A stretch of DNA of 16,180 nt from a virus (IMGVR_UViG_2529292886_000014:1-16180), one strand, 5' to 3'. Counted from the stretch's first letter, positions 1 through 16,180 are shown. The notes: a model not told the origin generated them from the letters alone. Numbers and translations: made by a program.

Positions 1-1230
1 ATGAGCAGATCACTTAACAAACTGAGCGATACACTGCTAAGGAAAATCAACGGCACACCCGCCCAAAAAACAGCCTTTCTTAATGACGGTGGAAACCTGA
101 GCGTCAGGCATTCAACCAGTGGCCTTTTAACCTGGTATTTCACTTACAGGGCCGGAACGGGAAGGGGGGCACCACCGGAACGCATTAAGCTGGGAAATTA
201 TCCTGATCTGAGCCTGAAATCAGCCAGGGAAAAAGCCGCCCAGTGTCGCGCATGGCTGGCTGAGGGGAAAAATCCACGTCATGAGATGAATTACACCGTA
301 CAGGAAGCGTTAAAGCCGGTAACGGTTGGCGATGCGCTCACCTACTGGCTTGAGTCGTACGCAAAGGAAAACCGTGTGGATTATGACCCACTGAAAAAGC
401 GGCTAAATAATCACGTAATACAGCACATTGGCCCTATGCCGCTGGATAAATGCGAGCTACGGCACTGGCTGGCCTGTTTTGATCGGGTGGCAAAGAAAGC
501 CCCTGTTTCCGCCGGGTTCCTGCTACAGACATGCAAGCAGGCGCTTAAGTTCTGCAGGAAGCGGCGCTATGCAATCAGCAACGTTCTTGATGATATGAGT
601 GTGGCGGACGTTGGGAAAAAACCGGATATAAGTGAGCGTGTCTTAAGTAACAAAGAACTTGGCGAATTATTGCAGGCACTGGACAAAAAAATATTTTCCC
701 CTTACTACGTCGCACTAATCCGCCTCCTGATTGTTTTCGGATGCCGGACAGTAGAACTGAGGTTATCGGAGAGCGGCGAGTGGGATTTTACCGAAATGCT
801 CTGGACCGTGCCGAAAGAACACAGCAAAACGAAGGTGGCAATATTCCGGCCCATACCGGAAGCAATACTGCCGTTCGTCACGCAGCTGGTGGAGCAGAAC
901 AGGCACACGGGCTTATTGCTGGGGGAAGTGAAACAGGAAACAAGCGTGTCGCAGTACGGCAGATTAGCGCACAGGAGGCTAAATCACCCTCACTGGTCAC
1001 TACATGACATCCGGCGCACCTTTACAACGATGCTGAACGATTTAGGCGTGGATCCTCACGTCGTGGAGCAGCTTACAGGCCACCAGATGCCAGGAATGCA
1101 GCGAGTTTATAATCATTCCCGTTATCTGGATGCTAAACGCAATGCGCTGGATATGTGGACGGAGTGGTTAGGGATACTGGCGGGAACACATGAAAACGTA
1201 ACCACGCTACCAGTAGCCAGAAGAAAATAA
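1..1230 (+). CDS. int: Site-specific tyrosine integrase (P4-type, N-terminal arm-binding domain)
   Basis: 409-aa ORF. N-terminus (LSDTLLRKINGTPAQKTAFLNDGGNLSV...YFTYR...IKLGNYPDLSLKSAREKA) resembles the arm-binding domain of P4-like integrases. C-terminus has HDIRRTF, LTGHQ and a Y in NHSRY, consistent with the R-H-R-Y catalytic set. Window starts exactly at its ATG. Confidence 0.9.
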   Translation: MSRSLNKLSDTLLRKINGTPAQKTAFLNDGGNLSVRHSTSGLLTWYFTYRAGTGRGAPPERIKLGNYPDLSLKSAREKAAQCRAWLAEGKNPRHEMNYTVQEALKPVTVGDALTYWLESYAKENRVDYDPLKKRLNNHVIQHIGPMPLDKCELRHWLACFDRVAKKAPVSAGFLLQTCKQALKFCRKRRYAISNVLDDMSVADVGKKPDISERVLSNKELGELLQALDKKIFSPYYVALIRLLIVFGCRTVELRLSESGEWDFTEMLWTVPKEHSKTKVAIFRPIPEAILPFVTQLVEQNRHTGLLLGEVKQETSVSQYGRLAHRRLNHPHWSLHDIRRTFTTMLNDLGVDPHVVEQLTGHQMPGMQRVYNHSRYLDAKRNALDMWTEWLGILAGTHENVTTLPVARRK

Positions 1231-1594
1231 TTTTTTTCGTGTTTTTTCAGTATGCGCATACTGGATATGCGAACAGATACAACGTGCAACAATGAGCAAC
1301 AATGTGGAACAACTACGAACAAGAGGCGAAAAAGCGTACGGATTTATAAGTGGCTGATTTTTAATGTGTTGCTGGTTTTTTATACACTAGCGAATCACTC
1401 TTTAAAGAGCGAGAAAAAAGGCATGAAACAATATTTTATGCCTTTGTATTAACATGAATTTAAAATATTTTATTCTTACTGTTTCATTTTCTGTAAATCA
1501 TACATCCTCAGTATTTGCCATTCATCACTCTAGCGGGAACAATACGACACAATAAGACACCTGATGACTCTTTAAGAAACGAAAGGGGGCAATA

Positions 1595-1783
1595 GTGTTA
1601 AGCACTGATCGGTTTATACGTGAAAAAGAATGCGAAAAACTAACCGGCCTTAGCCGTACGTGTCGCTACCGCCTGGAAAAGGCCGGACAATTCCCATCAC
1701 GTCGTAAACTTGGCGGTCGTTCCGTTGGCTGGTCTTTATCCGAGGTTCTGGCCTGGAAGGATAGCTGCAAGGCAGTTCATTAA
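1595..1783 (+). CDS. alpA: AlpA-family phage regulatory protein (excisionase-like HTH)
   Basis: 62-aa ORF with GTG start at 1595 preceded by SD AGGGGG (1584-1589). Sequence ...LTGLSRTCRYRLEKAGQFPSRRKLGGRSVGWSLSEVLAWK matches the AlpA/Xis-type HTH pattern (recalled, not searched). Position directly after int is typical of P4-like elements and PICIs. Confidence 0.8.
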   Translation: MLSTDRFIREKECEKLTGLSRTCRYRLEKAGQFPSRRKLGGRSVGWSLSEVLAWKDSCKAVH

Positions 1784-3317: not shown

Positions 3318-3617
3318 ATGAGAACATATTTATCTGGCTTGACTGCCAGCGGTTATGCACACCCTAAAATTATCCCCGGCGCTATTTATCTGGATAAGAA
3401 CGGTAACAGAGTAACGGTAAAAGAACTGATGTTTGACCGTGTGTATTTTATTCGTGATGGCTATTCATTTCATAGTTCGCTGAACGTGGAGATCTTTATT
3501 AGCAGATTCCGGCGGGAAATCCCGACTTCCAGAAATAACCATGTGTCACGTGTGGATGTGGATAAAAAACTACAGGAACTGAAAAACATGATTGCCTCGT
3601 GGAGAGAGCAGAAATGA
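3318..3617 (+). CDS. Hypothetical protein (99 aa)
   Basis: ORF starting 7 nt after the previous stop. Its stop overlaps the primase start (ATGA at 3614-3617). No family recognised. Confidence 0.55.
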   Translation: MRTYLSGLTASGYAHPKIIPGAIYLDKNGNRVTVKELMFDRVYFIRDGYSFHSSLNVEIFISRFRREIPTSRNNHVSRVDVDKKLQELKNMIASWREQK

Positions 3618-5431
3618 AAAAAGCGCCAAATTTAAAACACCAGCCACGTGACAAAATGACGGAAGTCATCATTTTTGCGGGTAGTGATGCGTGGGCACAT
3701 GCGAAGCAGTGGCAGGAACAGGACGGGCGACTGGCTGGCGATAACGTGCCACCTGTCTGGCTTGGAGAGCAACAACTTGCCGAACTGGACAACCTGCAAA
3801 TCGTACCGGACGGACGCTATCGCGTGCGTCTCTACCAGGCGGGGTTATTGCGTCCTGGGCTTGTTAATACCATCGGGCAGAAACTGGCAGCGGCAGGTGT
3901 CAGGGATGCTGATTATTATCCTGAAGGAATGCACAGCCAGAAACGGGAGAACTGGCGCGAATATCTGGAACGTGAGCGGGGAGAGCTGGCGGAAAAGAAA
4001 AAGGTAGTTGAACTGCCTGTAAAGAAAAAAGAGCGGGTAAAAGACGATAACGCTTCATCACTGGCGCTTAACCAGATGGGAGCAAGTCAACGCGGCGAAG
4101 TTCTCCTGGCACATTATGGCGGGGAACTGGCGATTCATGCCGACTCTGACACTGTTCACCATTACAACGGCGTTATATGGGAGCCGGTTCAGGATAAAGA
4201 ATTACAGCGAGCTATGGCACAGATTTTCATTGATGCGGAGATCAGCTATTCGCAGAACGCCATTAAATCGGCGGTCGATACCATGAAGTTAAGTTTGCCT
4301 GTAATGGGGAATACAGCCCGTAACCTGATTGGATTCAGTAACGGGGTATTTGATACCAGAACAGGTAATTTTCGGGAGCATAACAAAAACGACTGGTTGT
4401 TAATTGCCAGTGAATTACCTTTCAGCCCACCAGCAGAGGGGGAAACGCTGGCAACACATGCGCCGAATTTCTGGAAGTGGTTACGCCGTTCGGTGGCTGA
4501 GAATGACCGCAAGGCGGATCGCGTACTGGCTGCATTATTCATGGTGCTGGCGAACCGGTACGACTGGCAGTTATTCATTGAGGTAACAGGTCCAGGGGGA
4601 AGTGGTAAAAGCGTGATGGCGGAGATTTGCACCATGCTGGCGGGTAAGGCCAACACAGTATCGGCAAGCATGAAGGCGCTGGAAGATGCAAGGGAACGCG
4701 CGTTAGTGGTTGGCTTTTCGCTGATTATCATGCCGGATATGACCCGCTACGCTGGTGATGGGGCAGGGATTAAGGCTATTACAGGCGGTGACAAGGTGGC
4801 AATTGACCCGAAACACAAAGCCCCCTACTCAACGCGTATTCCGGCAGTAGTGCTGGCGGTTAACAATAACGCCATGTCATTCAGTGACCGCAGCGGGGGG
4901 ATCTCACGTCGTCGGGTGATATTCAATTTTTCGGAAGTTGTACCGGAGAACGAACGCGATCCAATGCTGGCGGAAAAAATAGAAGGTGAGCTGGCGGTAG
5001 TGATTCGCCATCTGCTTACACGGTTTGCTGACCAGGACGAAGCCAGACGCCTGTTATATGAGCAGCAGAAATCTGAAGAAGCACTGGCGATAAAGCGAGA
5101 GGGGGATTCGCTGGTGGACTTCTGCGGCTATCTCATGGCGTCGGTAATGTGTGATGGCCTGTTAGTGGGTAATGCTGAAATTGTACCATTCAGCCCACGC
5201 AGGTATCTCTATCATGCCTATCTGGCTTATATGCGGGCACATGGGTTTGGTAAACCTGTAACACTGACGCGCTTCGGTAAAGATATGCCGGGGGCAATGG
5301 CGGAATATGGCAGGGAGTATATGAAACGGAAAACGAAGCACGGTTTGCGTTCAAACGTGACACTGACGGAGGAATCAGAAGACTGGATGCCATCATGTGT
5401 ATCGGTCACTAATGACGATAGCAAAAATTAA
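3614..5431 (+). CDS. P4 alpha-like primase-helicase (replication initiator)
   Basis: About 605 aa from the ATG at 3614 (SD GGAGAGAG at 3601-3608); the track ORF begins at an upstream GTG (3599). Walker A motif GPGGSGKS in the C-terminal half, consistent with the P4-family primase C-terminal NTPase domain (recalled). Immediately followed by TGTTCACC iterons, the sequence bound by P4 alpha. Confidence 0.85.
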   Translation: MKKAPNLKHQPRDKMTEVIIFAGSDAWAHAKQWQEQDGRLAGDNVPPVWLGEQQLAELDNLQIVPDGRYRVRLYQAGLLRPGLVNTIGQKLAAAGVRDADYYPEGMHSQKRENWREYLERERGELAEKKKVVELPVKKKERVKDDNASSLALNQMGASQRGEVLLAHYGGELAIHADSDTVHHYNGVIWEPVQDKELQRAMAQIFIDAEISYSQNAIKSAVDTMKLSLPVMGNTARNLIGFSNGVFDTRTGNFREHNKNDWLLIASELPFSPPAEGETLATHAPNFWKWLRRSVAENDRKADRVLAALFMVLANRYDWQLFIEVTGPGGSGKSVMAEICTMLAGKANTVSASMKALEDARERALVVGFSLIIMPDMTRYAGDGAGIKAITGGDKVAIDPKHKAPYSTRIPAVVLAVNNNAMSFSDRSGGISRRRVIFNFSEVVPENERDPMLAEKIEGELAVVIRHLLTRFADQDEARRLLYEQQKSEEALAIKREGDSLVDFCGYLMASVMCDGLLVGNAEIVPFSPRRYLYHAYLAYMRAHGFGKPVTLTRFGKDMPGAMAEYGREYMKRKTKHGLRSNVTLTEESEDWMPSCVSVTNDDSKN

Positions 5432-6381: not shown

Positions 6382-6654
6382 ATGGTACATGACCGCATAG
6401 CGGAAGAACTCGAGGCGAAAGGCTTTTACCGGAGGGCGGCGGCGCGATGGGGTGAAGTCATGCAGCTGGTGGAGACAGACAAGGAACGGCATCACATCAC
6501 GATGCGACGGCTGGAATGTTGCAGGAAGGCACAGAGGCCACCGGAGCCACCGGATAATTACGGAGACCTGAAAAAGGCAGTCGATCGCACTTATGCCGAA
6601 ATGGGGATAGATGGTGCTGGTGATGAAATATGGCGCAATTACCAGGACAGCTAA
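6382..6654 (+). CDS. PerC-family-like small transcriptional regulator (90 aa)
   Basis: ATG at 6382 preceded by SD GAGGGGGTG. The N-terminal motif AEELEAKGFYRRAAARWGEVM resembles the PerC/Pch family signature as I recall it (unverified). The track ORF 6262..6654 overlaps ssb and is judged N-terminally over-extended. Confidence 0.5.
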   Translation: MVHDRIAEELEAKGFYRRAAARWGEVMQLVETDKERHHITMRRLECCRKAQRPPEPPDNYGDLKKAVDRTYAEMGIDGAGDEIWRNYQDS

Positions 6655-6660
6655 TCACAC

Positions 6661-6684
6661 AGCCGGAGAAATCCGGCTTTTTTT
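6661..6684 (+). terminator. Rho-independent terminator
   Basis: AGCCGGA-GAAA-TCCGGCT followed by TTTTTTT, directly after the stop at 6654. Confidence 0.7.
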
Positions 6685-6779
6685 GCACCAGTTGAAACGG
6701 TATGGCGCATTACCGGGTTTTCGTCACGGTCTGGCATAGTTACTATCTGAAACAAACAGACACAACAGAGGAAAAAACA

Positions 6780-7004
6780 ATGCCGATGAAATTTGATGAG
6801 ATATTAAAACAGCGTGATAAATACCATGCTGACAACATGGAGACGATGAGCATCAATGATTACCGCGCATTCCTGGAGACGGGCGCACTGATTGAAAAGG
6901 ATCAGCATGGTTTTGTTAGATGTGCTCTATCCGGTGAAATGCTGGCGGTAAATCCTGAACAGATAGATGCAATGATAGAATTTCTGAAAGGGATCAGGGA
7001 CTGA
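6780..7004 (+). CDS. Hypothetical small protein (74 aa) in a terminator-bracketed cassette
   Basis: ATG at 6780 preceded by SD GAGGAAAA. The track ORF begins at an upstream ATG (6702) with no SD. Flanked by the two near-identical terminators. Confidence 0.5.
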   Translation: MPMKFDEILKQRDKYHADNMETMSINDYRAFLETGALIEKDQHGFVRCALSGEMLAVNPEQIDAMIEFLKGIRD

Positions 7005-7013
7005 GCACGCATA

Positions 7014-7036
7014 CAGCCGGAGCAATCCGGCTTTTT
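7014..7036 (+). terminator. Rho-independent terminator (near-duplicate of 6661-6684)
   Basis: AGCCGGA-GCAA-TCCGGCT followed by TTTTTGTCATTTTTTG. Same stem as the upstream terminator, different loop. Confidence 0.7.
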
Positions 7037-7056
7037 GTCATTTTTTGTAAATTATT

Positions 7057-7083
7057 TGTTCGTGGTTGTTCCACGTTGTTCAC
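7057..7083. promoter_or_regulatory. Dyad element TTGTT-CGTGG-TTGTT-CCACG-TTGTT upstream of the head operon
   Basis: CGTGG (7061-7065) and CCACG (7071-7075) are reverse complements, separated and flanked by TTGTT. A half-copy TTGTTCCACGTTGTT recurs at 14581-14595. Confidence 0.35.
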
Positions 7084-7263
7084 TGACAGGATCGGCATAT
7101 TTTACCCGAACTGAATCATGATTATTCTCGCCCGTGGTGCCAGGACGCTGGGGCCATTTTTCCCGCCTGTTAATGTGTTCACCAATATTCATTCATTACC
7201 AGGCGGGAAAGCAATCGGTGCGTTTACTGATTTCCTTATGAAAAAGCGTTGAGTTTTTGCCGC

Positions 7264-7300
7264 GTCCTGGAGTTCCTTACTTAACCCCAGGACTTTTTTT
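7264..7300 (+). promoter_or_regulatory. Hairpin plus T-run abutting the capsid gene start (possible attenuator or RBS-sequestering structure)
   Basis: GTCCTGG (7264-7270) and CCAGGAC (7287-7293) form a 7-bp stem with a 16-nt loop, followed by TTTTTTT (7294-7300) and the capsid ATG at 7301. The only SD-like AGGA lies inside the right arm of the stem. Confidence 0.3.
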
Positions 7301-8458
7301 ATGCCGAGAATAATCGAATTACGCCAGCAGAAAACCGCCATTAAAAATCAGATGCGCGACATGCTGGAGAACGCGGAAAAAGAAAACCGCAGCCTTAACG
7401 ATGCAGAGGGCGCAAAATTTGACGAATTACGCGCTAAAGCTGAATCCCTCGATAAAGACATTTCCCGCCTTGAAGCCATTGCAGACGAAGAGCGCAGCAA
7501 GCCAGGTAAAAGCAGCCAGACCACTGACCCGGCAGAACTCCGCAACTACATCCTGACAGGTGAAACCCGCGCATTAAGTACAGGTGTCCCCGCTGATGGT
7601 GGTTATACCGTTATCCCTGAACTGAACACCGAAATCATGCGAATGCTGGCGGATGAGTCCACCATGCGCCGCATCTGTACCGTGAAAAAAATCAGCAGCA
7701 ACGAGTTTAAGCAGCTTGTTTCCGCTGGCGGTGCGGTCGTTAACCACGGTGAAGAGGGTAAGGCACGCGAACAGACCAGCACCCCGCAGATTAACGAGGT
7801 GAGCATTAAGCTGTATCCGGTCTATGCGTACCCGCGCACCACACAGGAAATCGTGGATTTTTCCGATGTGGACATCCTTTCATGGCTGACGGGCGAGATT
7901 GGCGACACCTTCACGGAAACCGAAGAAAGTGATCTGGTTGTGGGCGACGGTGACAAAAAAGCAAAAGGTTTTTTATCCGTACCCCGTGCAGAGAAGAACG
8001 ACAAAGAACGTGATTTCGGAACGTTGCAGGTTATCAAGCCCGTTGATGATCTTGCCTGGACATCTGCGGACCCGCTGATCGATCTGAAATTTGCATTACG
8101 TAAAAAATACCGCAAGAACGCGGTATGGGTGGTTAACTCCACGACGGCGGCAAAACTCCAGAAGGTGAAGAATGCGAACGGGGATTATATATGGCGTGAC
8201 CGTTTACAGGCGGGTGATCCTGACACATTGCTGGGCCTTCCGGTCGAATATCTGGAGTTTATGCCGGATAACGTTATTGCCCTGGGCGACTTTAAACGCG
8301 GTTACTACATCGTTGATCACGAAACAGGTGTTCGCACCAGACCGGACAACCTGACAGAACCAGGATTCATCAAAATTTTCACGCAAAAATATTTAGGCGG
8401 TGGCGTGGTGGATTCGAACGCGATCAAGATTCTGGAACTGCCACAGGACGACGATTAA
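7301..8458 (+). CDS. Major capsid protein, HK97 fold, with N-terminal coiled-coil delta/scaffold-like domain
   Basis: 385 aa. The N-terminal ~100 aa are charged and helical (RQQKTAIKNQMRDMLENAEKENRSLNDAEGAKFDELRAKAESLDKDISRLEAIADEE). The C-terminal part LLGLPVEYLEFMPDNVIALGDFKRGYYIVDHETGVRTRPDNLTEPGFIKIF fits the HK97-family capsid pattern (recalled). Confidence 0.9.
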   Translation: MPRIIELRQQKTAIKNQMRDMLENAEKENRSLNDAEGAKFDELRAKAESLDKDISRLEAIADEERSKPGKSSQTTDPAELRNYILTGETRALSTGVPADGGYTVIPELNTEIMRMLADESTMRRICTVKKISSNEFKQLVSAGGAVVNHGEEGKAREQTSTPQINEVSIKLYPVYAYPRTTQEIVDFSDVDILSWLTGEIGDTFTETEESDLVVGDGDKKAKGFLSVPRAEKNDKERDFGTLQVIKPVDDLAWTSADPLIDLKFALRKKYRKNAVWVVNSTTAAKLQKVKNANGDYIWRDRLQAGDPDTLLGLPVEYLEFMPDNVIALGDFKRGYYIVDHETGVRTRPDNLTEPGFIKIFTQKYLGGGVVDSNAIKILELPQDDD

Positions 8459-8468
8459 CAGCATACAG

Positions 8469-8497
8469 AAGGGGCTAAAAAGCCCCTTTAGTGTTTT
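8469..8497 (+). terminator. Intrinsic terminator/attenuator downstream of the capsid gene
   Basis: AAGGGGCT-AAAA-AGCCCCTT followed by the T-rich tail TAGTGTTTTATG, between the capsid stop (8458) and the protease start (8514). Confidence 0.55.
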
Positions 8498-8513
8498 ATG
8501 GGTGAAAAAAATT

Positions 8514-9071
8514 ATGAAGAGTATGGAAATCCGGTCATCGGAAATCACCACCAGCGCCAGCAACACGCTTACAGGCTACGTTGTTCGCTGGGATAACCTT
8601 TCGGAACTGTTATGGGGGGAGTTTTACGAAAAATTCCAGCGGGGGGCGTTTACTGAGTGGCTTGCGGCGGGTAATGACGTTCGCGGCCTGTATGAGCATG
8701 ACCACAGCATGTTACTGGGGCGCACCCGTTCCGGCACGCTGAAACTGGAAGAGGACGACACAGGGTTACGCTTTGAACTTACCCCACCGGATACCAGCAC
8801 AGGGCGTGACGTTATCGAACTGGTTAAACGTGGTGATATATCCGGCATGAGCTTTGGCTTTCGTTCCCGTAAGGATGTATGGGATACCACAACAGATCCA
8901 TGCGTGCGCACCGTGCTGGTGGCGGAACTGTACGAAATTACCGTTACATCCGTACCGGCTTACCCCGATTCCGGCGTGGAGCTGGCCCGCCGTTCCCTGT
9001 ATGAGCAGCACCCCGAAAAAATGCCGCGTGCGGATAATCGCCGCTGGTGGGCGGATTTAGCGGGGGTGTGA
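8514..9071 (+). CDS. Prohead maturation protease, HK97 family
   Basis: 185 aa from the ATG at 8514 (the track ORF is extended to 8400 across the terminator). Motifs TGYVVRWDN, GLYEHD and GMSFGF match the HK97 prohead protease family (recalled). Confidence 0.85.
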   Translation: MKSMEIRSSEITTSASNTLTGYVVRWDNLSELLWGEFYEKFQRGAFTEWLAAGNDVRGLYEHDHSMLLGRTRSGTLKLEEDDTGLRFELTPPDTSTGRDVIELVKRGDISGMSFGFRSRKDVWDTTTDPCVRTVLVAELYEITVTSVPAYPDSGVELARRSLYEQHPEKMPRADNRRWWADLAGV

Positions 9072-9072
9072 T

Positions 9073-10284
9073 ATGTGGCCTTTCAGAAGAAAAAAAGAGC
9101 AGCGCAGCATGACGCTTGATGAATTTATGGCGCTGGCTGGCACATCGAACACGGGGGCGGGTGAGTACGTATCATCGGGGACAGCGGAATCACTCCCCGC
9201 CGTCATGAACGCCGTCACGGTCATCTCTGAGGCGGTGGCTACTATGCCATGCTACCTGTACCTGGTACGCAATGAGAAGGGGAAGGAGGCCCGCGAGTGG
9301 CTTGATTCTCATCCGGTCGATCATATCCTCAACGAGCGCCCGAACGCATGGCAAACCCCCTACCAGTTTAAGCGAATGATGATCCGCCACTGCCTGTTAA
9401 ACGGTAATGCTTACGCGGTGATTCAGTGGGGGCGTGATGGTTTTCCGGCGGCTTTACATCCTTACCCGCCGCAGTCGGTGAACGTGGAGCAGACAGGAGA
9501 ACACAACTGGCGCTATTGCATCACTGACGCCTACACCGGAAACACCCGCAACTATTTACCGTGGGAAGTACTTCACCTTCGTTACTCCACGGATGACGGC
9601 TTTATGGGGCGCTCACCTGTAACCATCTGCCGCGAATCGCTGGGGCTTGGGCTGGCCCAACAACGCCACGGCGCGAGCGTGATGCGTGATGGCATGATGG
9701 CGGCAGGGGTTATCACGTCAGGCGAATGGCTGGACGGCGTGAAAGGCAAACAGGCATTAGCCGCACTGGAACGCTATAAAGGGGCCAAAAACGCCGGAAA
9801 AACGCCCATCCTTGAAGGGGGCATGAGTTACCAGCAGCTGGGCATGAGTAACCAGGACGCCGAATGGCTGGCCTCCCGTCGCTTCACCATTGAAGACATC
9901 GCCCGAATGTTCAACGTCTCGCCGATTTTTCTGCAGGAATACAGCAACAGCACCTACAGCAATTTCAGCGAGGCAAGCCGCGCATTTCTCACCATGACGA
10001 TGCGCCCGTGGCTGGCGAACTTTGAGCAGCAGATAAAAAACGCCTTGCTGGTGGTCTCGCCTGTACCTGGTATCCGGTATCAGGTGGAGTTTGACAGCGC
10101 GGACCTGTTACGGGCCACACCTGGCGAACGCTTTGCCACCTATGAGCGAGGCATCAAATCCGGTGTTATGTGCCCGAACGAAGCCCGCGAACGAGAAGGG
10201 TTGTCTCCGCGTGATGGTGGTGATGAGTTCAGCCAGGCATGGAAACAGGAAGTAAAAATCAGCGAGGGAGAAAAACCGGAATGA
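9073..10284 (+). CDS. Portal protein, HK97 family
   Basis: 403 aa. Motifs NERPNAWQTPYQF, LLNGNAYAVI, GRSPV, EDIARMFNVSPIFL and NEAREREGLSP...GGD follow the HK97-family portal pattern (recalled). Starts 2 nt after the protease stop. Confidence 0.85.
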   Translation: MWPFRRKKEQRSMTLDEFMALAGTSNTGAGEYVSSGTAESLPAVMNAVTVISEAVATMPCYLYLVRNEKGKEAREWLDSHPVDHILNERPNAWQTPYQFKRMMIRHCLLNGNAYAVIQWGRDGFPAALHPYPPQSVNVEQTGEHNWRYCITDAYTGNTRNYLPWEVLHLRYSTDDGFMGRSPVTICRESLGLGLAQQRHGASVMRDGMMAAGVITSGEWLDGVKGKQALAALERYKGAKNAGKTPILEGGMSYQQLGMSNQDAEWLASRRFTIEDIARMFNVSPIFLQEYSNSTYSNFSEASRAFLTMTMRPWLANFEQQIKNALLVVSPVPGIRYQVEFDSADLLRATPGERFATYERGIKSGVMCPNEAREREGLSPRDGGDEFSQAWKQEVKISEGEKPE

Positions 10285-10619
10285 ACATAGGGCGACTGCG
10301 TGACAGGGTAACGATTCAGACCCTGAAACAGACCAGAGCCATGACGGGCGAAATACTCGAAACGTGGGAGGACGGTCACACACTCTGGGCAAGCGTGAAC
10401 ATGGTCAGCAGCAAGGAGGCCATTTCATCGGGTGCAGAGCTGGCGATTGGTACCGTAAGGATCTGGATACGGTACCGGAAGGACATCAACGCCACCAGCC
10501 GGATAAAGGTCAATACGGGGCCGCTGGCGGGGCGTGTACTGAATATCATCGGGCAGCCGCTGCCGGATGCCGCCAGGACACGCCTTGAAATTCTTTGTCG
10601 TGAGGGCGCGGAAAAATGA
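10281..10619 (+). CDS. Head-closure / head-tail joining protein (HK97 gp7-like)
   Basis: 112 aa from the ATG at 10281 (SD GAGGGAG; ATGA overlap with the portal stop). The N-terminus MNIGRLRDRVTIQ matches the head-tail joining family motif (recalled). Confidence 0.75.
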   Translation: MNIGRLRDRVTIQTLKQTRAMTGEILETWEDGHTLWASVNMVSSKEAISSGAELAIGTVRIWIRYRKDINATSRIKVNTGPLAGRVLNIIGQPLPDAARTRLEILCREGAEK

Positions 10620-10912
10620 CAGAAGAACTTATCACCCTAGAAGAAGTGAAACTCCATTGCCGCATCGATGGCGACGAGGAAGACCAGTTAATCAGCGGAT
10701 ACATTGCCGCATCGCTTGAGGCGTGCCAGATACACATAGGCAGGCGCTTTGATGACGGGCTGGAGTTCACGCCAGCCATAAAGATTGGCTGCATGATGTT
10801 TATCGCTCACCTGTATGAGAATCGCCAGATTGTCGCGGATAACGCAAAAACACACGTACCCATGACGATTGGCGCACTCTGGACGGCTTACCGTGATGTG
10901 GGGGTGTACTGA
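10616..10912 (+). CDS. Head-tail connector protein (gp6-like)
   Basis: 98 aa. N-terminus MTEELITLEEVKLHCRIDGDEEDQLISGYIAASLEACQIHIGRRF matches the gp6-like connector signature (recalled). Confidence 0.8.
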   Translation: MTEELITLEEVKLHCRIDGDEEDQLISGYIAASLEACQIHIGRRFDDGLEFTPAIKIGCMMFIAHLYENRQIVADNAKTHVPMTIGALWTAYRDVGVY

Positions 10913-11352
10913 TGCCGTGGCAACCATTAAGACGATGTACAGAACCAGGCTGCAACAGGCGCGTGAAGTCCGGCAAGTGTGAGGAGCACAGACGCAGCGC
11001 ACGCCAGCAGCAGGACAGCCGGAGAGGCAGCAGCAGGGAGCGAGGGTATACGAGGCAGTGGGAGAAATACCGCGCCATGTATCTGAGTAAAAACCCGTTA
11101 TGTGCGCATTGCCTGGAAAAAGGAATATACACGCCCGCCGTGGTGGTGGATCACATTATCCCAATCGATGGCGGTAATGATGTTCTCTTCTGGCCTGAGT
11201 GGAATCATCAGCCATTGTGCCAGGCGTGTCATAACCAGAAAACGAAATGGCTTGATCCGTCCACAAAAAACAAGCGTGCTGCGGGTGGATTCCGTGAGGA
11301 GGAAGAACGGGCCGCTAACCGCAATAACTGGATGTATGGCGCTGATGAATGA
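10912..11352 (+). CDS. HNH endonuclease (terminase-associated)
   Basis: 146 aa. CxxC pairs (CTEPGC, CAHC) and the HNH core VVDHIIPIDGGNDV...NHQPLCQACHNQKT. Start overlaps the previous stop (TGATG). Sits directly upstream of terS/terL. Confidence 0.9.
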   Translation: MPWQPLRRCTEPGCNRRVKSGKCEEHRRSARQQQDSRRGSSRERGYTRQWEKYRAMYLSKNPLCAHCLEKGIYTPAVVVDHIIPIDGGNDVLFWPEWNHQPLCQACHNQKTKWLDPSTKNKRAAGGFREEEERAANRNNWMYGADE

Positions 11353-11518
11353 GCGGGAACAAAACCGCCTTATCCGTGGACTTATAAGGCAGCGTGACGC
11401 ATGGAAGGCACAGGAAACAGGGCATAAAGATAAAGCATCAGGACGCGCAGAACGCATCACAGCGACGCGATTAAACGACCGTGACCGCGAGGTTATGGAA
11501 TGTTTCCGCAATCGCTGA
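11345..11518 (+). CDS. Hypothetical small protein (57 aa)
   Basis: In-frame ATG at 11345 within track ORF 11102..11518, overlapping the HNH stop; product MNEREQNRLIRGLIRQRDAWKAQETGHKDKASGRAERITATRLNDRDREVMECFRNR. No clear SD and no family recognised. Confidence 0.3.
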   Translation: MNEREQNRLIRGLIRQRDAWKAQETGHKDKASGRAERITATRLNDRDREVMECFRNR

Positions 11519-11640
11519 TGAGGCAGCCGGACGGGGTGGGGGGAGTTTTCAGGACGAACCCGACCCCGCCCAGAACCGAACGCCTCCTCAAATTTTTATG
11601 CACGGGAATTTTTTGAAAAATAATCTGACGAAAAATAAGC

Positions 11641-11997
11641 ATGGCAAGACCACCGAAAGCCCCCGCCTACCTGGATGATATCGCCGTGAAGCAGTGGCGG
11701 GAAAAATCGCGGCAGCTTGCGGAGCGGGGAGACCTGACCCCCGCCGACTGGAGCAATCTGGAACTGTATTGCGTCAACTACTCCATTTACCGGAAAGCCG
11801 TTGCAGACCTTGCGGCGCGCGGGTTCAGCATTGTTAACAGTCAGGGCGGCGAGAGCAGAAACCCCGCATTAAGCGCAAAATCCGACGCTGAAAGGGTGAT
11901 GATAAAAATGGCCTCCTTGCTTGGTTTTGACCCGATAAGCCGCCGTAAAAATCCACCGGAAACAGAAGAAGAGGACGAGCTTGACCGCCTGGAATAA
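11641..11997 (+). CDS. terS: Terminase small subunit (P27-family-like)
   Basis: 118 aa. Pattern MARPPKAP.YLDD.A...W......L...G.LT.AD...LE.YC..Y..YRKA...L...G....N..G....NPA......A...M.K.A..LGF.P..R matches the P27-type small terminase (recalled). Confidence 0.9.
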   Translation: MARPPKAPAYLDDIAVKQWREKSRQLAERGDLTPADWSNLELYCVNYSIYRKAVADLAARGFSIVNSQGGESRNPALSAKSDAERVMIKMASLLGFDPISRRKNPPETEEEDELDRLE

Positions 11998-13642
11998 GTA
12001 CGCAGAAGACGTAAAAACGGGCAAAATTCCGGCCTGTAAACGGCTGAAACAGGCCGTTAAACGGTACTTTTCGGACCTTGAAAGCCCCCTTTACACGTTC
12101 GATCGTGAGGTTGTGGAGCGGTTTATTGCCTTTTCCAGGGTGTGCCCGCACGTAAAAGGGCCGATGCGTGGCAGACCCATTGAGCTGGAGCCGTGGCAGC
12201 AGTTCGCCTTTGCGTGCATCCTCGGCTTTAAGGTTAAGGCCACCGGACGGCGCAAATACACGAGCGCCTTTATCGAAGTGCCGCGCAAAAATGCGAAATC
12301 CACGACCGCCGCGATTCTGGCTAACTGGTTTCTGATTATGGAGAACGGTCAGCAGGATATCTACACCGCAGCGGTGAGCCGTGACCAGGCGCGGATCGTC
12401 TTTGATGATGCGCGTCAGATGTGCCTTTTATCCCGACCGTTACGCAGGCGGGTGAATATTCAGGCGCATAAGGTGATACACCCGAAAAGCAACAGCCTGT
12501 TAAAGCCGCTGACAGGAAAAGCGGCAACCATCGAGGGAACAAACCCCAGCCTTTCCATCGTGGACGAATACCACTTGCACCCCGATAACGGCGTTTATTC
12601 CGCGCTTGAGCTGGGGATGGGCGCACGTCCCGAAGGGCTGTTATTTGCCATTACCACATCAGGCAGCAACGTCGTTTCAGCCTGTAAGCAGCACTATGAT
12701 TATTGCTGTCAGATCCTGGACGGCGAAGAGGTCAACGATTCAATTTTTGTACTGATTTACGAACTGGACGACGAAAACGAGGTTGATGATCCGGCGATGT
12801 GGATAAAGGCTAACCCTAACATCGATGTTTCCGTGGATCGTGAAAAACTGGCCTCAACCATCCAGAAAGCGCGGGGTATTCCGTCGCAGTGGGTGGAGAT
12901 GATGACAAAGCGATTTAATATCTGGTGTCAGGGGACTACCCCGTGGATGGGTAATGGTGCATGGGCTGAGTGTGCCGGAACGTTCACGGAGGAAGATTTA
13001 CACGGTCAGGAGTGTTACGCGGGGCTGGACTTATCATCAACCAGCGATATTTCCAGCGTGTGCTATGCCTTTCCGGTCGGTAAAAATATCATGCTGGTTT
13101 CCCGTCATTATCTGCCGGAGTTCCAGCTACAGAACCCCGCCAATAAAAACCGCGCTGTCTATCGCCAGTGGGCTAAAGCGGGCTGGATACGCACAACGCC
13201 AGGTGACTGCATTGATTACGACCGGATCAGAGATGACATCATGCAGGACGCGGAGAAATTTAATATCAGGCTGGTGGGCTTTGATACGTGGAACGCCACG
13301 CATCTCAGGACGCAATTACAGGGGGCTGGTTTTGAGGTGGAGCCGTTCCCGCAAACCTACCTCAGATTCAGTCCGGCGGCGAAATCGTTCGAAGTTTTTG
13401 TTAACCGCAGGGTGATTGTGCATCGTGGCGATCCGGTGTTGTCCTGGTCGATGAGTAACGTCGTGATGCAGAGTGACGCGAATGCCAATATCAAGCCGAA
13501 CAAGAAAAAATCACCGAACAAGATAGACCCGGGCGTGGCGGCACTGATGGCGTTTGGTACATTCCAGGCAGAGCATGAGGATTTTGCTTTTGATATAAGC
13601 GACAGCCACCGCCAGAAACTGGAAGAATTTAGCGGGGTGTAA
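11981..13642 (+). CDS. terL: Terminase large subunit
   Basis: 553 aa. The track start is a TTG at 11981 preceded by GAGGA and overlapping the terS end; the true start is uncertain. Walker-A-like VPRKNAKST, an acidic ATPase motif SIVDEYH, and a C-terminal nuclease-like region fit large terminases. Confidence 0.9.
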   Translation: MTAWNKYAEDVKTGKIPACKRLKQAVKRYFSDLESPLYTFDREVVERFIAFSRVCPHVKGPMRGRPIELEPWQQFAFACILGFKVKATGRRKYTSAFIEVPRKNAKSTTAAILANWFLIMENGQQDIYTAAVSRDQARIVFDDARQMCLLSRPLRRRVNIQAHKVIHPKSNSLLKPLTGKAATIEGTNPSLSIVDEYHLHPDNGVYSALELGMGARPEGLLFAITTSGSNVVSACKQHYDYCCQILDGEEVNDSIFVLIYELDDENEVDDPAMWIKANPNIDVSVDREKLASTIQKARGIPSQWVEMMTKRFNIWCQGTTPWMGNGAWAECAGTFTEEDLHGQECYAGLDLSSTSDISSVCYAFPVGKNIMLVSRHYLPEFQLQNPANKNRAVYRQWAKAGWIRTTPGDCIDYDRIRDDIMQDAEKFNIRLVGFDTWNATHLRTQLQGAGFEVEPFPQTYLRFSPAAKSFEVFVNRRVIVHRGDPVLSWSMSNVVMQSDANANIKPNKKKSPNKIDPGVAALMAFGTFQAEHEDFAFDISDSHRQKLEEFSGV

Positions 13643-13655
13643 TGAGGTCAGCAGC

Positions 13656-13937
13656 ATGACAGAAGCCGAAATACTGCGATTAATCCGCCGCGTCTCTGGA
13701 ATCAGCCAGCAGGCTGACGAACAGACCACGCAGCCGGACAGCGTGACAGCCGAAAATTATGCGCGTGTTGTTGCTGAGGTGATGCGCCGTGATGGTATCC
13801 AGCTTAATGATGTGGATATGCGCGACATACGGATCCGCGTTCTGGAAATGCTGGCCTATCGTCGCCGCGTGGAGATGTATCGGGAGAAGGAAAAAATAAC
13901 GTACCACTGGAAGAAGCCGGAGCGCTTGCGGCGGTAA
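13656..13937 (+). CDS. Hypothetical protein (93 aa), last gene of the element
   Basis: ATG at 13656 with SD GAGGT about 7 nt upstream, 14 nt after the terL stop. Charged and helical; no family recognised. Confidence 0.5.
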   Translation: MTEAEILRLIRRVSGISQQADEQTTQPDSVTAENYARVVAEVMRRDGIQLNDVDMRDIRIRVLEMLAYRRRVEMYREKEKITYHWKKPERLRR

Positions 13938-14230
13938 CTGGTTGATATTCCCGACGGCCCAAAAATGGGTGGCTACATCCCTCGCTTCTGAGGACTGTTA
14001 ACAAGCTGCCTGAAAGACAGTCACAAACTACGAAATTTTCGCAGTTTAATTAATGGTCAGCTTAATCGCTAACCCGCTGATATTTTCGGAAACCTCAATT
14101 TGAGGAAGTCGGCGCGGTAACTCGCTGAACTTAAAGCAAAGCTCAAAATTGAGCTGGCTGAATAATCATTATGATTACGCAGATGATTAAGGAATGACCG
14201 AAGGCGGAAATTCGCCTGTGGTTGATGGGG

Positions 14231-14250
14231 GAGTTGCAGATCTGCAACTC
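14231..14250. repeat. 20-bp perfect palindrome GAGTTGCAGATCTGCAACTC
   Basis: Read directly; the reverse complement is identical. Embedded in an ORF-poor stretch with several other dyads. Confidence 0.8.
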
Positions 14251-14719
14251 GACCATGAAACTACGGAAACTACCCGTAGTTTGGGTAGTAAGAGTAACAC
14301 CCAGATTTTGGGGCTTACTCGTGATACCCAAATTTGGGGTATCGGTGGCAACCATAACGACTTTCGTTACGGTTGATGCTTTTACCCCATTGGGGGAAAG
14401 GTATTACGATAATCATAACACCTACCGAACAGGTAAAACCCACCAGCCTGATTAACAGTTAACCGGAAAAAAAACCAGGTGGCCCCGTTATGGGGATCCC
14501 CATATCGACATTAACGCCCCTCATGAATTGGTGTGCTTCCCCCTGGAAAGATTACCCGCCTGTATATTTCTTGTGTCTATTTGTTCCACGTTGTTTCATA
14601 CAGTGCACCGAACGGTGTAGTTAATGGTGTAGTTAATTTGCTGTTTTTAGCACTTTTTGTAGTGTGAGTTTTTTAATTAAATTAATGGGTTACTTTGCTG
14701 TGGTGATAAAAGGACATAT

Positions 14720-16180
14720 TTATTCATCTTTCGGCGTAGAATGCTGGCGACCAAAAATCACCTCCATCCGCGCACCGCCAAGCATGCTCTCTCCGGCGAC
14801 GATTTTACCCTCATATTGCTTGGTGATTTCGCGGGCTACCGCCAGCCCCACACCTTGCCCAGGGCGTAAAGTATCAACCCGTTGACCACGGTCGAAAATG
14901 ACCTCTCGCTTGCTTAATGGAATACCGGGGCCATCATCCTCGACCACAATATAGAGATGCTCGTCGGTTTGCCTTGCAGAAATTTCGACAAACTCGAGGC
15001 AATATTTACAGGCATTATCCAGTACATTGCCCATCACCTCGACAAAATCGTTCTGCTCACCGACAAAGCTGATCTCTGGCGAAATATCGAGAGAGATATT
15101 GACCCCTTTGCGTTGATACACTTTGTTCAGCGCCGAGGTGAGATTGTCCAGCAGTGGGGCGACCGGATGCAGCTCGCGGCTGAGCAATGTCCCGCCGTGC
15201 ATACTGGCACGATGCAGGTAGTAGCCAATTTGCTGTGAAATGCGGCTGATTTGCTCCAGCATTACCGGTTCAGCATCACTGACGCTCATCTTTTCACTAC
15301 GTAGAGAACGCAGCGTACTTTGCAGCACCGCCAGTGGCGTTTTCAGACTATGGGTCAGGTCGGTGAGCGTTGTACGATATTTGTCGTAACGTTCGCGTTC
15401 ACTTTTTAACAATCGGTTCAGGTTTCGTACCAGACTGGTCAGTTCTCGCGTTGTGGCTGGATTGAGCAATTCGCGGTTATGTTCTTCCAGTTCGCGGACT
15501 TCTTTTGCCAGGGCTTCGATGGGGCGTAAACTCCACCAGGCGGCGACCCACAGCAGCGGGATCACTAACAGCAGATTGGCTGAGAGCACATAGATAAACC
15601 AGCTCCAGACCATATAGGAACTTTTTAGCTCCACCGGAATGGTATCCACCACCACAATGGTTAACTTTGGCATCCGCGATGTTGCCGGGTAGACGTTTAC
15701 CGCCACCGAGTGGGTCATCTCCGCGTCGTCATCATCTTCCCGCACTTCCTGCAACTGTTGCTGTATCGAATGATCTCCACTCAGCAAGAGGCTGGTATCG
15801 TTAACATCCGCTTCAATTTCATGAAAACCATTCGATTTCAGCCAGTCAGGCTGGATCATCTTCATCAGCCAGGGCACGTCACGTTGCGCCCATAAAAGCT
15901 GCCCGTTCTCATCATAAATTAGCGTCATGGTGGGGCTTTGCTTGTCGATATTTTCGGGTAACTCGACATGCAACTTATTGTTTTCCCACTTCGCAAGGGT
16001 ATAGAACAGATTGCTCTCGCCACGTAACAGCCGAAACGTAGTTTTATCGAAACTGACGCTATAACCGATCAGCGCGACCATTCCGTAGGCAAGCGAAAGC
16101 ACCAGTACTACCGCTGCCGTTGCCAACAGAAAACGTACCCGCAGCGAGAGCGGGAAAAAAAGACGCAGTAATTTTTTCAT
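14720..16180 (-). CDS. phoQ: Sensor histidine kinase PhoQ (PhoP/PhoQ two-component system)
   Basis: 486-aa minus-strand ORF whose translation is near-identical to Escherichia coli PhoQ as I remember it: two transmembrane segments, periplasmic sensor with acidic patch EDDDDAE, HAMP, H-box LTHSLKTPL, ATPase G-boxes DDGPGI and GQGVGL. The window ends exactly at its start codon. Confidence 0.95.

Follow-up and report, generated by a model that had tools for sequence, protein, structure and literature searches.

Capsid, head and packaging genes in the published capsid-first order mark a probable capsid-forming phage-inducible chromosomal island of the EcCIEDL933 family

Phage-inducible chromosomal islands that form capsids (cf-PICIs) carry genes between species on borrowed phage tails, which makes it important for annotation to recognise them, and gene-content detection tools for such satellites exist already. 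The SatelliteFinder paper places them in ~13% of Enterobacteriaceae genomes, reports 969 elements (cfPICI) with a median size of 14 kb and a very conserved organisation of core components, and detects them by gene content, with tail or holin genes as 'forbidden components'. A conserved order in proteobacterial cf-PICIs, namely capsid, protease, portal and head connectors, then hnh, terS and terL, was described by Alqurainy et al. (bioRxiv 10.1101/2022.09.08.507074), whose capsid and large terminase (TerL) trees put cf-PICIs in three clades apart from phages. In the island EcCIEDL933, mutating each head or packaging gene abolished the transfer of the island but not that of its helper phage, with the exception of gene 1792, whose mutant was severely impaired in transfer without losing it. 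The HNH gene was likewise needed for EcCIEDL933 transfer, mutations in two helper tail genes abolished the transfer of phage and island alike, and a mutant in alpA, the PICI induction gene, lost both induction and transfer. The EcCIEDL933 capsid was solved as a T=4 shell of 47.5 nm with 240 HK97-fold subunits, from which the N-terminal 92 residues are cleaved to leave a mature start at residue 93 in a SxGxxAD motif (He et al., bioRxiv 10.1101/2025.02.11.637232, which cites PDB 9gyi).

Here we compare with these systems the head and packaging genes at 7301-13642 of the viral record IMGVR_UViG_2529292886_000014:1-16180, the whole 16,180-nt stretch being called the window throughout. We are highly confident that this region is the head-building and DNA-packaging operon of a gammaproteobacterial cf-PICI of the EcCIEDL933 family, situated in an Escherichia-type chromosome between roxA and phoQ. 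The finding is one already known, in that the unusual gene order is a published hallmark of proteobacterial cf-PICIs. Nothing is added to the literature on gene order, on the satellite-specific capsid and TerL clade, on the cleaved delta domain or on the T=4 capsid; the questions that remain are regulatory, namely the role of a conserved hairpin after the capsid gene and the way in which a structured leader and a repeat array switch the operon on.

All eight family assignments made in an earlier sequence-only reading were confirmed by profile searches against Pfam, NCBIfam and PHROGs, and the genes are intact and all on the plus strand in the order capsid, protease, portal, head closure, adaptor, HNH, small terminase (TerS) and TerL. 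The block opens with an HK97-fold major capsid protein of 385 aa (7301-8458; PF05065 over residues 100-379 and TIGR01554, major_cap_HK97, over residues 8-379), followed by an HK97-family (S78) prohead serine protease of 185 aa (8514-9071; PF04586; TIGR01543, proheadase_HK97). The protease most likely starts at ATG 8514 and not at GTG 8400, because the latter would overlap both the capsid gene and the hairpin, and because the gene is annotated at the ATG in a 99% identical relative (L001 among the loci we fetched). Next come the portal protein (9073-10284; PF04860, E 3e-90; TIGR01537), a head closure protein of the HK97 gp7/SPP1 gp16 type (10281-10619; PF05521; phrog_25 Hc1; TIGR01563), whose start overlaps the portal stop (ATGA) and which is 48% identical to HK97 gp7 by tblastn, and a head-tail adaptor of the HK97 gp6 type (10616-10912; PF05135; phrog_40 Ad1; TIGR01560). 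An HNH endonuclease, a packaging cofactor (10912-11352; PF01844), then precedes a P27-family TerS (11641-11997; PF05119; TIGR01558) and a TerL of 553 aa (11981-13642; PF03354, PF20441), whose TTG start is identical in the Prokaryotic Genome Annotation Pipeline (PGAP) annotation of two relatives (L005 and L006).

Two small genes complete the operon. Between HNH and terS stands a 60-aa gene (11336-11518, plus strand; phrog_3173, E 1e-34) that was absent from the list of the sequence-only reading; it is the counterpart of EcCIEDL933 gene 1792 and is annotated in L001, L005 and L006. At the operon end lies a conserved 93-aa gene (13656-13937, plus strand; phrog_1561, E 8e-56), also present in L001, L005, L006 and L008. 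The genes within 7301-13937 (11/11) are intact. From protease through HNH, neighbouring genes abut or overlap by 1-4 nt, and the operon has only two gaps, of 55 nt 3' of the capsid gene and of 122 nt 5' of terS.

The surroundings are those of a PICI. The window and the O157:H7 island in tqsA share 94.8% identity across 89% of the window, with gene lists alike, and the module was found at a coverage of at least 80% in 403/5426 complete E. coli genomes, chromosomal in every case. The element is ~14.6 kb long from the int start at position 1 to attR, within the ~14-16 kb and att-bounded form of cf-PICIs, with attL just outside the window. A P4-type tyrosine integrase (1-1230, plus strand; PF13356 and PF00589) forms the left island end and shares 96% identity with its counterparts in L006 and L008, both located at roxA|phoQ. 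The right end is attR (14564-14638; core CGGTGTAGTTAATGGTGTAGT at 14613-14633), which adjoins phoQ (14720-16180, minus strand), the gene that closes the window. In E. coli JNEC-KY177 (L006), at the same roxA|phoQ site, the island is flanked by a 75-nt imperfect direct repeat, and the right copy of this repeat can be read in the window at 14564-14638. The PICI-type left module is complete, with the integrase, an AlpA/Vis-type excisionase-regulator gene, alpA (1595-1783, plus strand; PF05930, E 5e-17; phrog_2790), and a D5-type primase/helicase, pri-rep (3599-5431, plus strand; PF08706, PF19263, PF03288). Among the plus-strand open reading frames (ORFs) scanned from int to attR, several of them small and of no assigned function, we found no tail, holin or lysin families.

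We then considered how the gene order relates to that of HK97, in which terS, terL, portal, protease, capsid, adaptor (Ad, gp6) and head closure (Hc, gp7) follow one another and HNH lies at the right end of the linear genome. A scripted comparison bore out the claim that the one-strand order of the window is non-canonical, as it is no rotation of the HK97 order, nor of the HK97 order reversed. The only directed adjacencies kept from HK97 are HNH to terS and terS to terL; capsid and protease, protease and portal, and adaptor and head closure are still adjacent but swapped, with the strand unchanged. The accompanying statement that HK97 has its HNH gene at the other genome end holds for the linear genome, but in the circular genome the same position reads HNH-cos-terS, and therefore HNH-terS-terL is canonical here and only the head genes are reordered. 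We rejected a single inversion or rotation as the source of the order, as neither yields what is observed. Two rounds of tandem duplication and random loss could yield it, although this is speculation.

To compare synteny, we searched the fetched loci by tblastn with the proteins of the window and also used the annotations of those loci. The capsid-first order was found in 10/10 related loci with at least 58% capsid identity, from eight genera: three E. coli genomes, Shigella, Klebsiella vB_KppS-Ant, Citrobacter, Erwinia, Gilliamella, a degraded Rosenbergiella copy and Pasteurella Pmp8. Gene content and order were constant across these genera, with proteins 58-99% identical. Relatives with capsid identity of 33% or less had the canonical order terL..portal..protease..capsid..Ad..Hc; they comprised Yersinia phage YeP1, HK97, Bacillota metagenome-assembled genomes (MAGs) and a Rhodovulum locus resembling a gene transfer agent (GTA). 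Close matches in the phage collection were limited to satellite-sized records of ~10-16 kb and one 106-kb record. Capsid and TerL were 58-82% identical to the satellite-sized records, after which identity fell to at most 40% (capsid) and 35% (TerL), so that by identity comparison the satellite-specific capsid and TerL group that had been anticipated does stand apart from true phages. On these alignments, the capsid-first order is best read as the inherited layout of a satellite clade and not as an oddity of this window. The suggestion that the order could serve as a lineage signature is upheld by all 10 relatives, but Firmicutes cf-PICIs are ordered otherwise and the signature had already been published.

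Several of the fetched loci showed further features of their own. In the Erwinia psidii locus (L011, 12992-13003), the window head closure protein gave no tblastn match and the gap between portal and adaptor is 10 nt; this may be a cf-PICI relative without a gp7-like gene, or with the gene elsewhere. An island in a Bartonella MAG (L016, 1900-17682; also L018) carries a P4-type integrase, a Prim-Pol gene, portal, a 523-aa protease::capsid fusion, HNH, an HK97-gp10-like gene, terS, terL and a 773-aa TMP_3 protein. Its head genes stand before HNH-terS-terL as in cf-PICIs, with the portal ahead of the protease/capsid gene, and it may be a cf-PICI-like element of Alphaproteobacteria. In Klebsiella vB_KppS-Ant (L002, 2036-4333; LR881103) a 765-aa gene directly 3' of terL, where the window has just the 93-aa gene, is annotated as 'tail length tape measure protein', an identity given by annotation only. 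The 106.5-kb record of Klebsiella phage P12620-1 (L020, PQ569648) contains, at 90984-105292, cf-PICI-like TerL (82% identical), capsid (64% identical), protease and portal genes arranged as in a circularly permuted cf-PICI; the record could have arisen by co-assembly, or a satellite could lie within a larger record.

The 122-nt gap before terS (11519-11640) is a probable cos region, which the sequence-only reading did not list. The linear, particle-derived vB_KppS-Ant record (LR881103, from an induced prophage) starts 22 nt before terS and ends just past the small ORF that follows HNH, and its ends align to ~11554 and ~11601 of the window. Taken from this one record, the packaged order would run terS-terL ... 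capsid-protease-portal-Hc-Ad-HNH, with terminase at the left and HNH at the right, as in HK97.

The capsid protein is ~98% identical to PDB 9gyi, with six substitutions. Its delta or scaffolding domain occupies residues 1-92 (7301-7576), and the mature protein starts at S93 (7577) in the motif S-T-G-V-P-A-D. The N-terminal ~92-100 aa lie outside the Pfam capsid domain, as the fold domain begins at residue 100; residues 1-92 are 39% charged, with two Pro/Gly within the first 65. A single-sequence AlphaFold2 model with a mean predicted local distance difference test (pLDDT) score of 36.5 placed helices at 2-31 and 38-66, which is a weak hint only. There is no unassigned gene between the capsid and portal genes, and hence no separate scaffold gene there. 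Since TIGR01554 spans residues 8-379, the N-terminal extension is normal family architecture, and having the delta domain fused and no scaffold gene is what defines the HK97 condition, not a departure from it. Both features had been pointed out as distinctive; they are present as described, but as ordinary HK97 traits. Measurement of capsid size by cryo-EM, proposed along with them, is already in print for EcCIEDL933.

Half of the differences from the EcCIEDL933 capsid (3/6) fall at residues 248-250 (window 8042-8050), which read VDD here and SES there. The cluster sits at the end of the 'connector loop', residues 227-248, which has been suggested to affect how large the capsid is (He et al., bioRxiv 10.1101/2025.02.11.637232).

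From homology to this near-identical tested element, the life of the island can be sketched as follows. Induction by a helper phage via alpA would lead the island to excise and replicate, and the 385-aa capsid protein would assemble around the portal with its own N-terminal delta domain as scaffold. The S78 protease would then remove residues 1-92 to give a small T=4 shell of HK97 fold, sized for ~15 kb. HNH, TerS and TerL would cut at the cos of the island between HNH and terS and fill the shell, and head closure and adaptor would complete the neck so that tails made by the helper can dock. Small capsids of its own, packaging of itself only and use of helper tails are expected by analogy, given the 96-100% identity of head and terminase proteins (HNH 88%) to the O157:H7 island and the ~98% identity of the capsid to 9gyi.

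Starting 10 nt past the capsid stop is a GC-rich, terminator-like hairpin, GAAGGGGCT-AAAA-AGCCCCTTT followed by AGTGTTTTAT (8468-8489, plus strand), which occupies the sole intergenic gap within the head-gene block. The sequence-only reading had noticed a terminator here, and as a structure it is real, with a 9-bp stem, an interrupted T tail, a minimum free energy (MFE) of -17.6 kcal/mol and z = -3.1. In 11/11 cf-PICI sequences, counting the window, the capsid stop is followed by a GGGGC-loop-GCCCC hairpin and a short T run. A function can be argued because the hairpin is kept in all of them despite flanks that cannot be aligned; the GGGGC/GCCCC stem is conserved without covariation or compensatory changes. 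The HK97 record also has an annotated putative terminator directly 3' of its capsid gene, and therefore the hairpin is tied to the capsid gene itself and not to its leading position. We infer from these comparisons that the conserved hairpin may modulate the ratio of capsid to downstream products.

How it would do so can be explained in two ways. The hairpin could be a leaky intrinsic terminator, so that the capsid-first order gives many capsid and few protease and portal transcripts, the need being ~235:12 capsid to portal. A real and stable hairpin, its conservation 3' of the capsid stop in every cf-PICI compared, its position in the lone gap among otherwise overlapping head genes, and short or interrupted T tails, which fit partial termination, all speak for this explanation. 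It is weakened by HK97, where the capsid gene is third among the head genes and yet has a putative terminator in the same place, by a stem that is conserved but not covarying, and by the consideration that antiterminated transcription would read through the hairpin. We regard a leaky terminator as possible rather than probable.

Such read-through is the substance of the second explanation, which we hold no more than tentatively. The operon would be read by a terminator-resistant polymerase, loaded by AlpA or a Q-like factor, and the hairpin's main part would be to stabilise the 3' end of the capsid message or to offer a site for its processing. A role of this kind is assumed for the lambdoid late operons. 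Three further terminator-like hairpins lie 5' of the capsid gene (6661-6678, 7015-7032 and a T7 hairpin just before the ATG), and Klebsiella-type elements have a strong terminator ~30 nt past the conserved leader motif, a pattern of hairpins and terminators usually seen where antitermination is in control. In Pseudomonas aeruginosa, AlpA has been proven to be an antiterminator (PMC7969949, PMC9371919), and cf-PICI induction requires alpA. Set against this, a literature search for AlpA, antitermination and PICI returned no paper joining the three, and what ties the protein here to Pseudomonas AlpA is a common Pfam family (PF05930).

Upstream of the capsid gene lies a structured leader of ~270 nt (7033-7300, plus strand; MFE -80 kcal/mol, z = -3.4 versus shuffled sequences), through which the operon may be switched on. 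It opens with the motif TTTTGTAAATTATTTGT (7043-7059), which is conserved among the aligned Enterobacterales elements and, in part, in Gilliamella, and ends in a hairpin and T7 run overlapping the capsid ribosome-binding site (~7266-7300). When the whole window was scanned against Rfam with E values up to 1 allowed, matches stayed at chance level, with none in the leader or cos region. In E. coli-type elements, the leader motif runs into an array of phased TTGTTN hexamers with 10-nt spacing. Such arrays occur in the window in the int-alpA spacer (1270-1322, minus strand, five units), in the capsid leader (7045-7081, plus strand) and in the attR arm (14571-14596, plus strand), and in L005 at 2410-2434, 3797-3821, 9552-9576 and 17065-17079; attL of L005 and L006 has them as well. 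The paired hexamer and the 15-mer TTGTTCCACGTTGTT each occurred 4 times, where 0.01 and 0.03 occurrences, respectively, were expected. The L001 island, with another integrase and another att site, keeps the leader array, and close to its right end lies a related copy. This k-mer comparison of leaders covered E. coli-type loci and left out L008, L002 and L010-L012. The Klebsiella-type leader motif was found in L002 as the leader copy only, so that the link between leader and att repeats could not be carried over to that lineage.

The TTGTTN repeats common to the leader, the int-alpA spacer and the att arms are the one unreported observation of this analysis. The array may be bound by the AlpA/Vis-type excisionase-regulator or by the arm domain of the integrase, and binding by either would link excision to head-gene expression. 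A fuller and undescribed circuit, in which the AlpA/Vis-like protein or the integrase arm couples excision to head-gene transcription, or to antitermination through the leader and its several terminators, while the hairpin sets a ratio of ~20:1 capsid to portal, could be built on these repeats, but we consider it unlikely in that form.

Other features of the window lie 5' of the leader. The left part of the plus strand also holds a DUF4222 gene, SSB and a PerC-family regulator. A terminator-like hairpin at 7015-7032 (plus strand) ends a 74-aa gene (6780-7004, plus strand; phrog_1957) just before the leader and is the twin of that at 6661-6678. The twins, 354 nt apart, read AGCCGGAG[A/C]AATCCGGCT and then a T run; they bracket the 74-aa gene, and the arrangement resembles a moron-like, insulated cassette placed between perC and the leader of the capsid gene. 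Further left, only the last ~50-90 residues of a 385-aa ORF (1841-2998) have matches, to an Icd-like cell division inhibitor and a phrog 'transcriptional repressor'. The ~1 kb around it is not found in other E. coli cf-PICIs, which have there a pseudogene, a minus-strand YlcI/YnfO gene and a short Icd-like gene. PADLOC, run on six small or unassigned ORFs including this one, gave no defence-system match.

Returning to the identity of the element as a cf-PICI, four points tell against it or against parts of it. The cos position was taken from where one related record begins and ends, and ~46 nt were left unaligned; no sigma-70-like promoter was found on the plus strand at 6500-14700; the integrase (89%), HNH (88%) and SSB (85%) are less close to the O157:H7 island, from which the 1841-2998 region differs; and we infer particles, transfer and helper by analogy, as this element is known here from its genes. 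Far less probable, to the point of being nearly dismissed, is an HK97-like prophage in decay, stripped of tail and lysis genes, scrambled by rearrangement and left as a remnant with no independent life cycle: all head and packaging proteins do belong to HK97-type families and some copies in other strains are frameshifted in the primase and TerL genes, but all 11 genes at 7301-13937 are intact, their content and order are kept over eight genera at 58-99% protein identity, the left arm is of PICI and not lambdoid type, the nearest true phages are at most 40% identical, and the near-identical EcCIEDL933 was mobile in published transfer experiments. A GTA-like reading was also rejected, as the GTA-like Rhodovulum locus has the canonical order and the element here is an integrative satellite.

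GTAs are domesticated elements that package host DNA and are not integrative satellites. The capsid of the Rhodobacter capsulatus GTA (PDB 6tb9, 6tba) is nonetheless the next-closest solved capsid (E ~1e-46, residues 73-380), from a particle that is likewise small and of HK97 fold, whereas the one GTA-like locus compared (Rhodovulum, L019) runs terL-portal-protease-capsid. EcCICFT073 and EcCIED1a, which are classical PICIs of E. coli, share the int, alpA and pri-rep left arm and alpA-dependent induction by a helper, but they have no capsid, portal, connector or terL genes and repackage into capsids made by the helper. The two groups of Firmicutes cf-PICIs have the same minimal head and packaging functions on a PICI backbone; by their published description they differ in order, with portal-protease-capsid first in one group and HNH-TerS-TerL first in the other, and capsid and TerL trees indicate independent origins for them (Alqurainy et al., bioRxiv 10.1101/2022.09.08.507074).

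HK97 itself shares the protein families and, once its genome is circular, the adjacency of HNH, cos, terS and terL. Its gp5 capsid protein is also 385 aa long, with a cleaved delta domain of ~100 aa, no scaffold gene and a hairpin directly 3' of the capsid gene. Its head genes, in contrast, run portal-protease-capsid-Ad-Hc, against capsid-protease-portal-Hc-Ad here on the same strand; pairwise BLASTP of the two capsid proteins found no similarity (E 0.096), and the HK97 shell is T=7 versus T=4 for the EcCIEDL933-type capsid. The element is also no complete HK97-like prophage, as its order differs, it has no tail or lysis genes and it measures ~15 kb versus 39.7 kb. EcCIEDL933 is the closest described system. 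The element here differs from that type in its integration at roxA|phoQ, against tqsA in the O157:H7 genome examined, in the lower identity of integrase, HNH and SSB given above, and in the unshared ~1 kb around 1841-2998. Both carry the same genes in the same arrangement, down to the small ones that precede capsid, lie between HNH and terS, and follow terL; identities are ~98% for capsid, 99% for portal, 99% for TerL and 100% for TerS, and the cleavage motif of the delta domain at S93 is the same in both.

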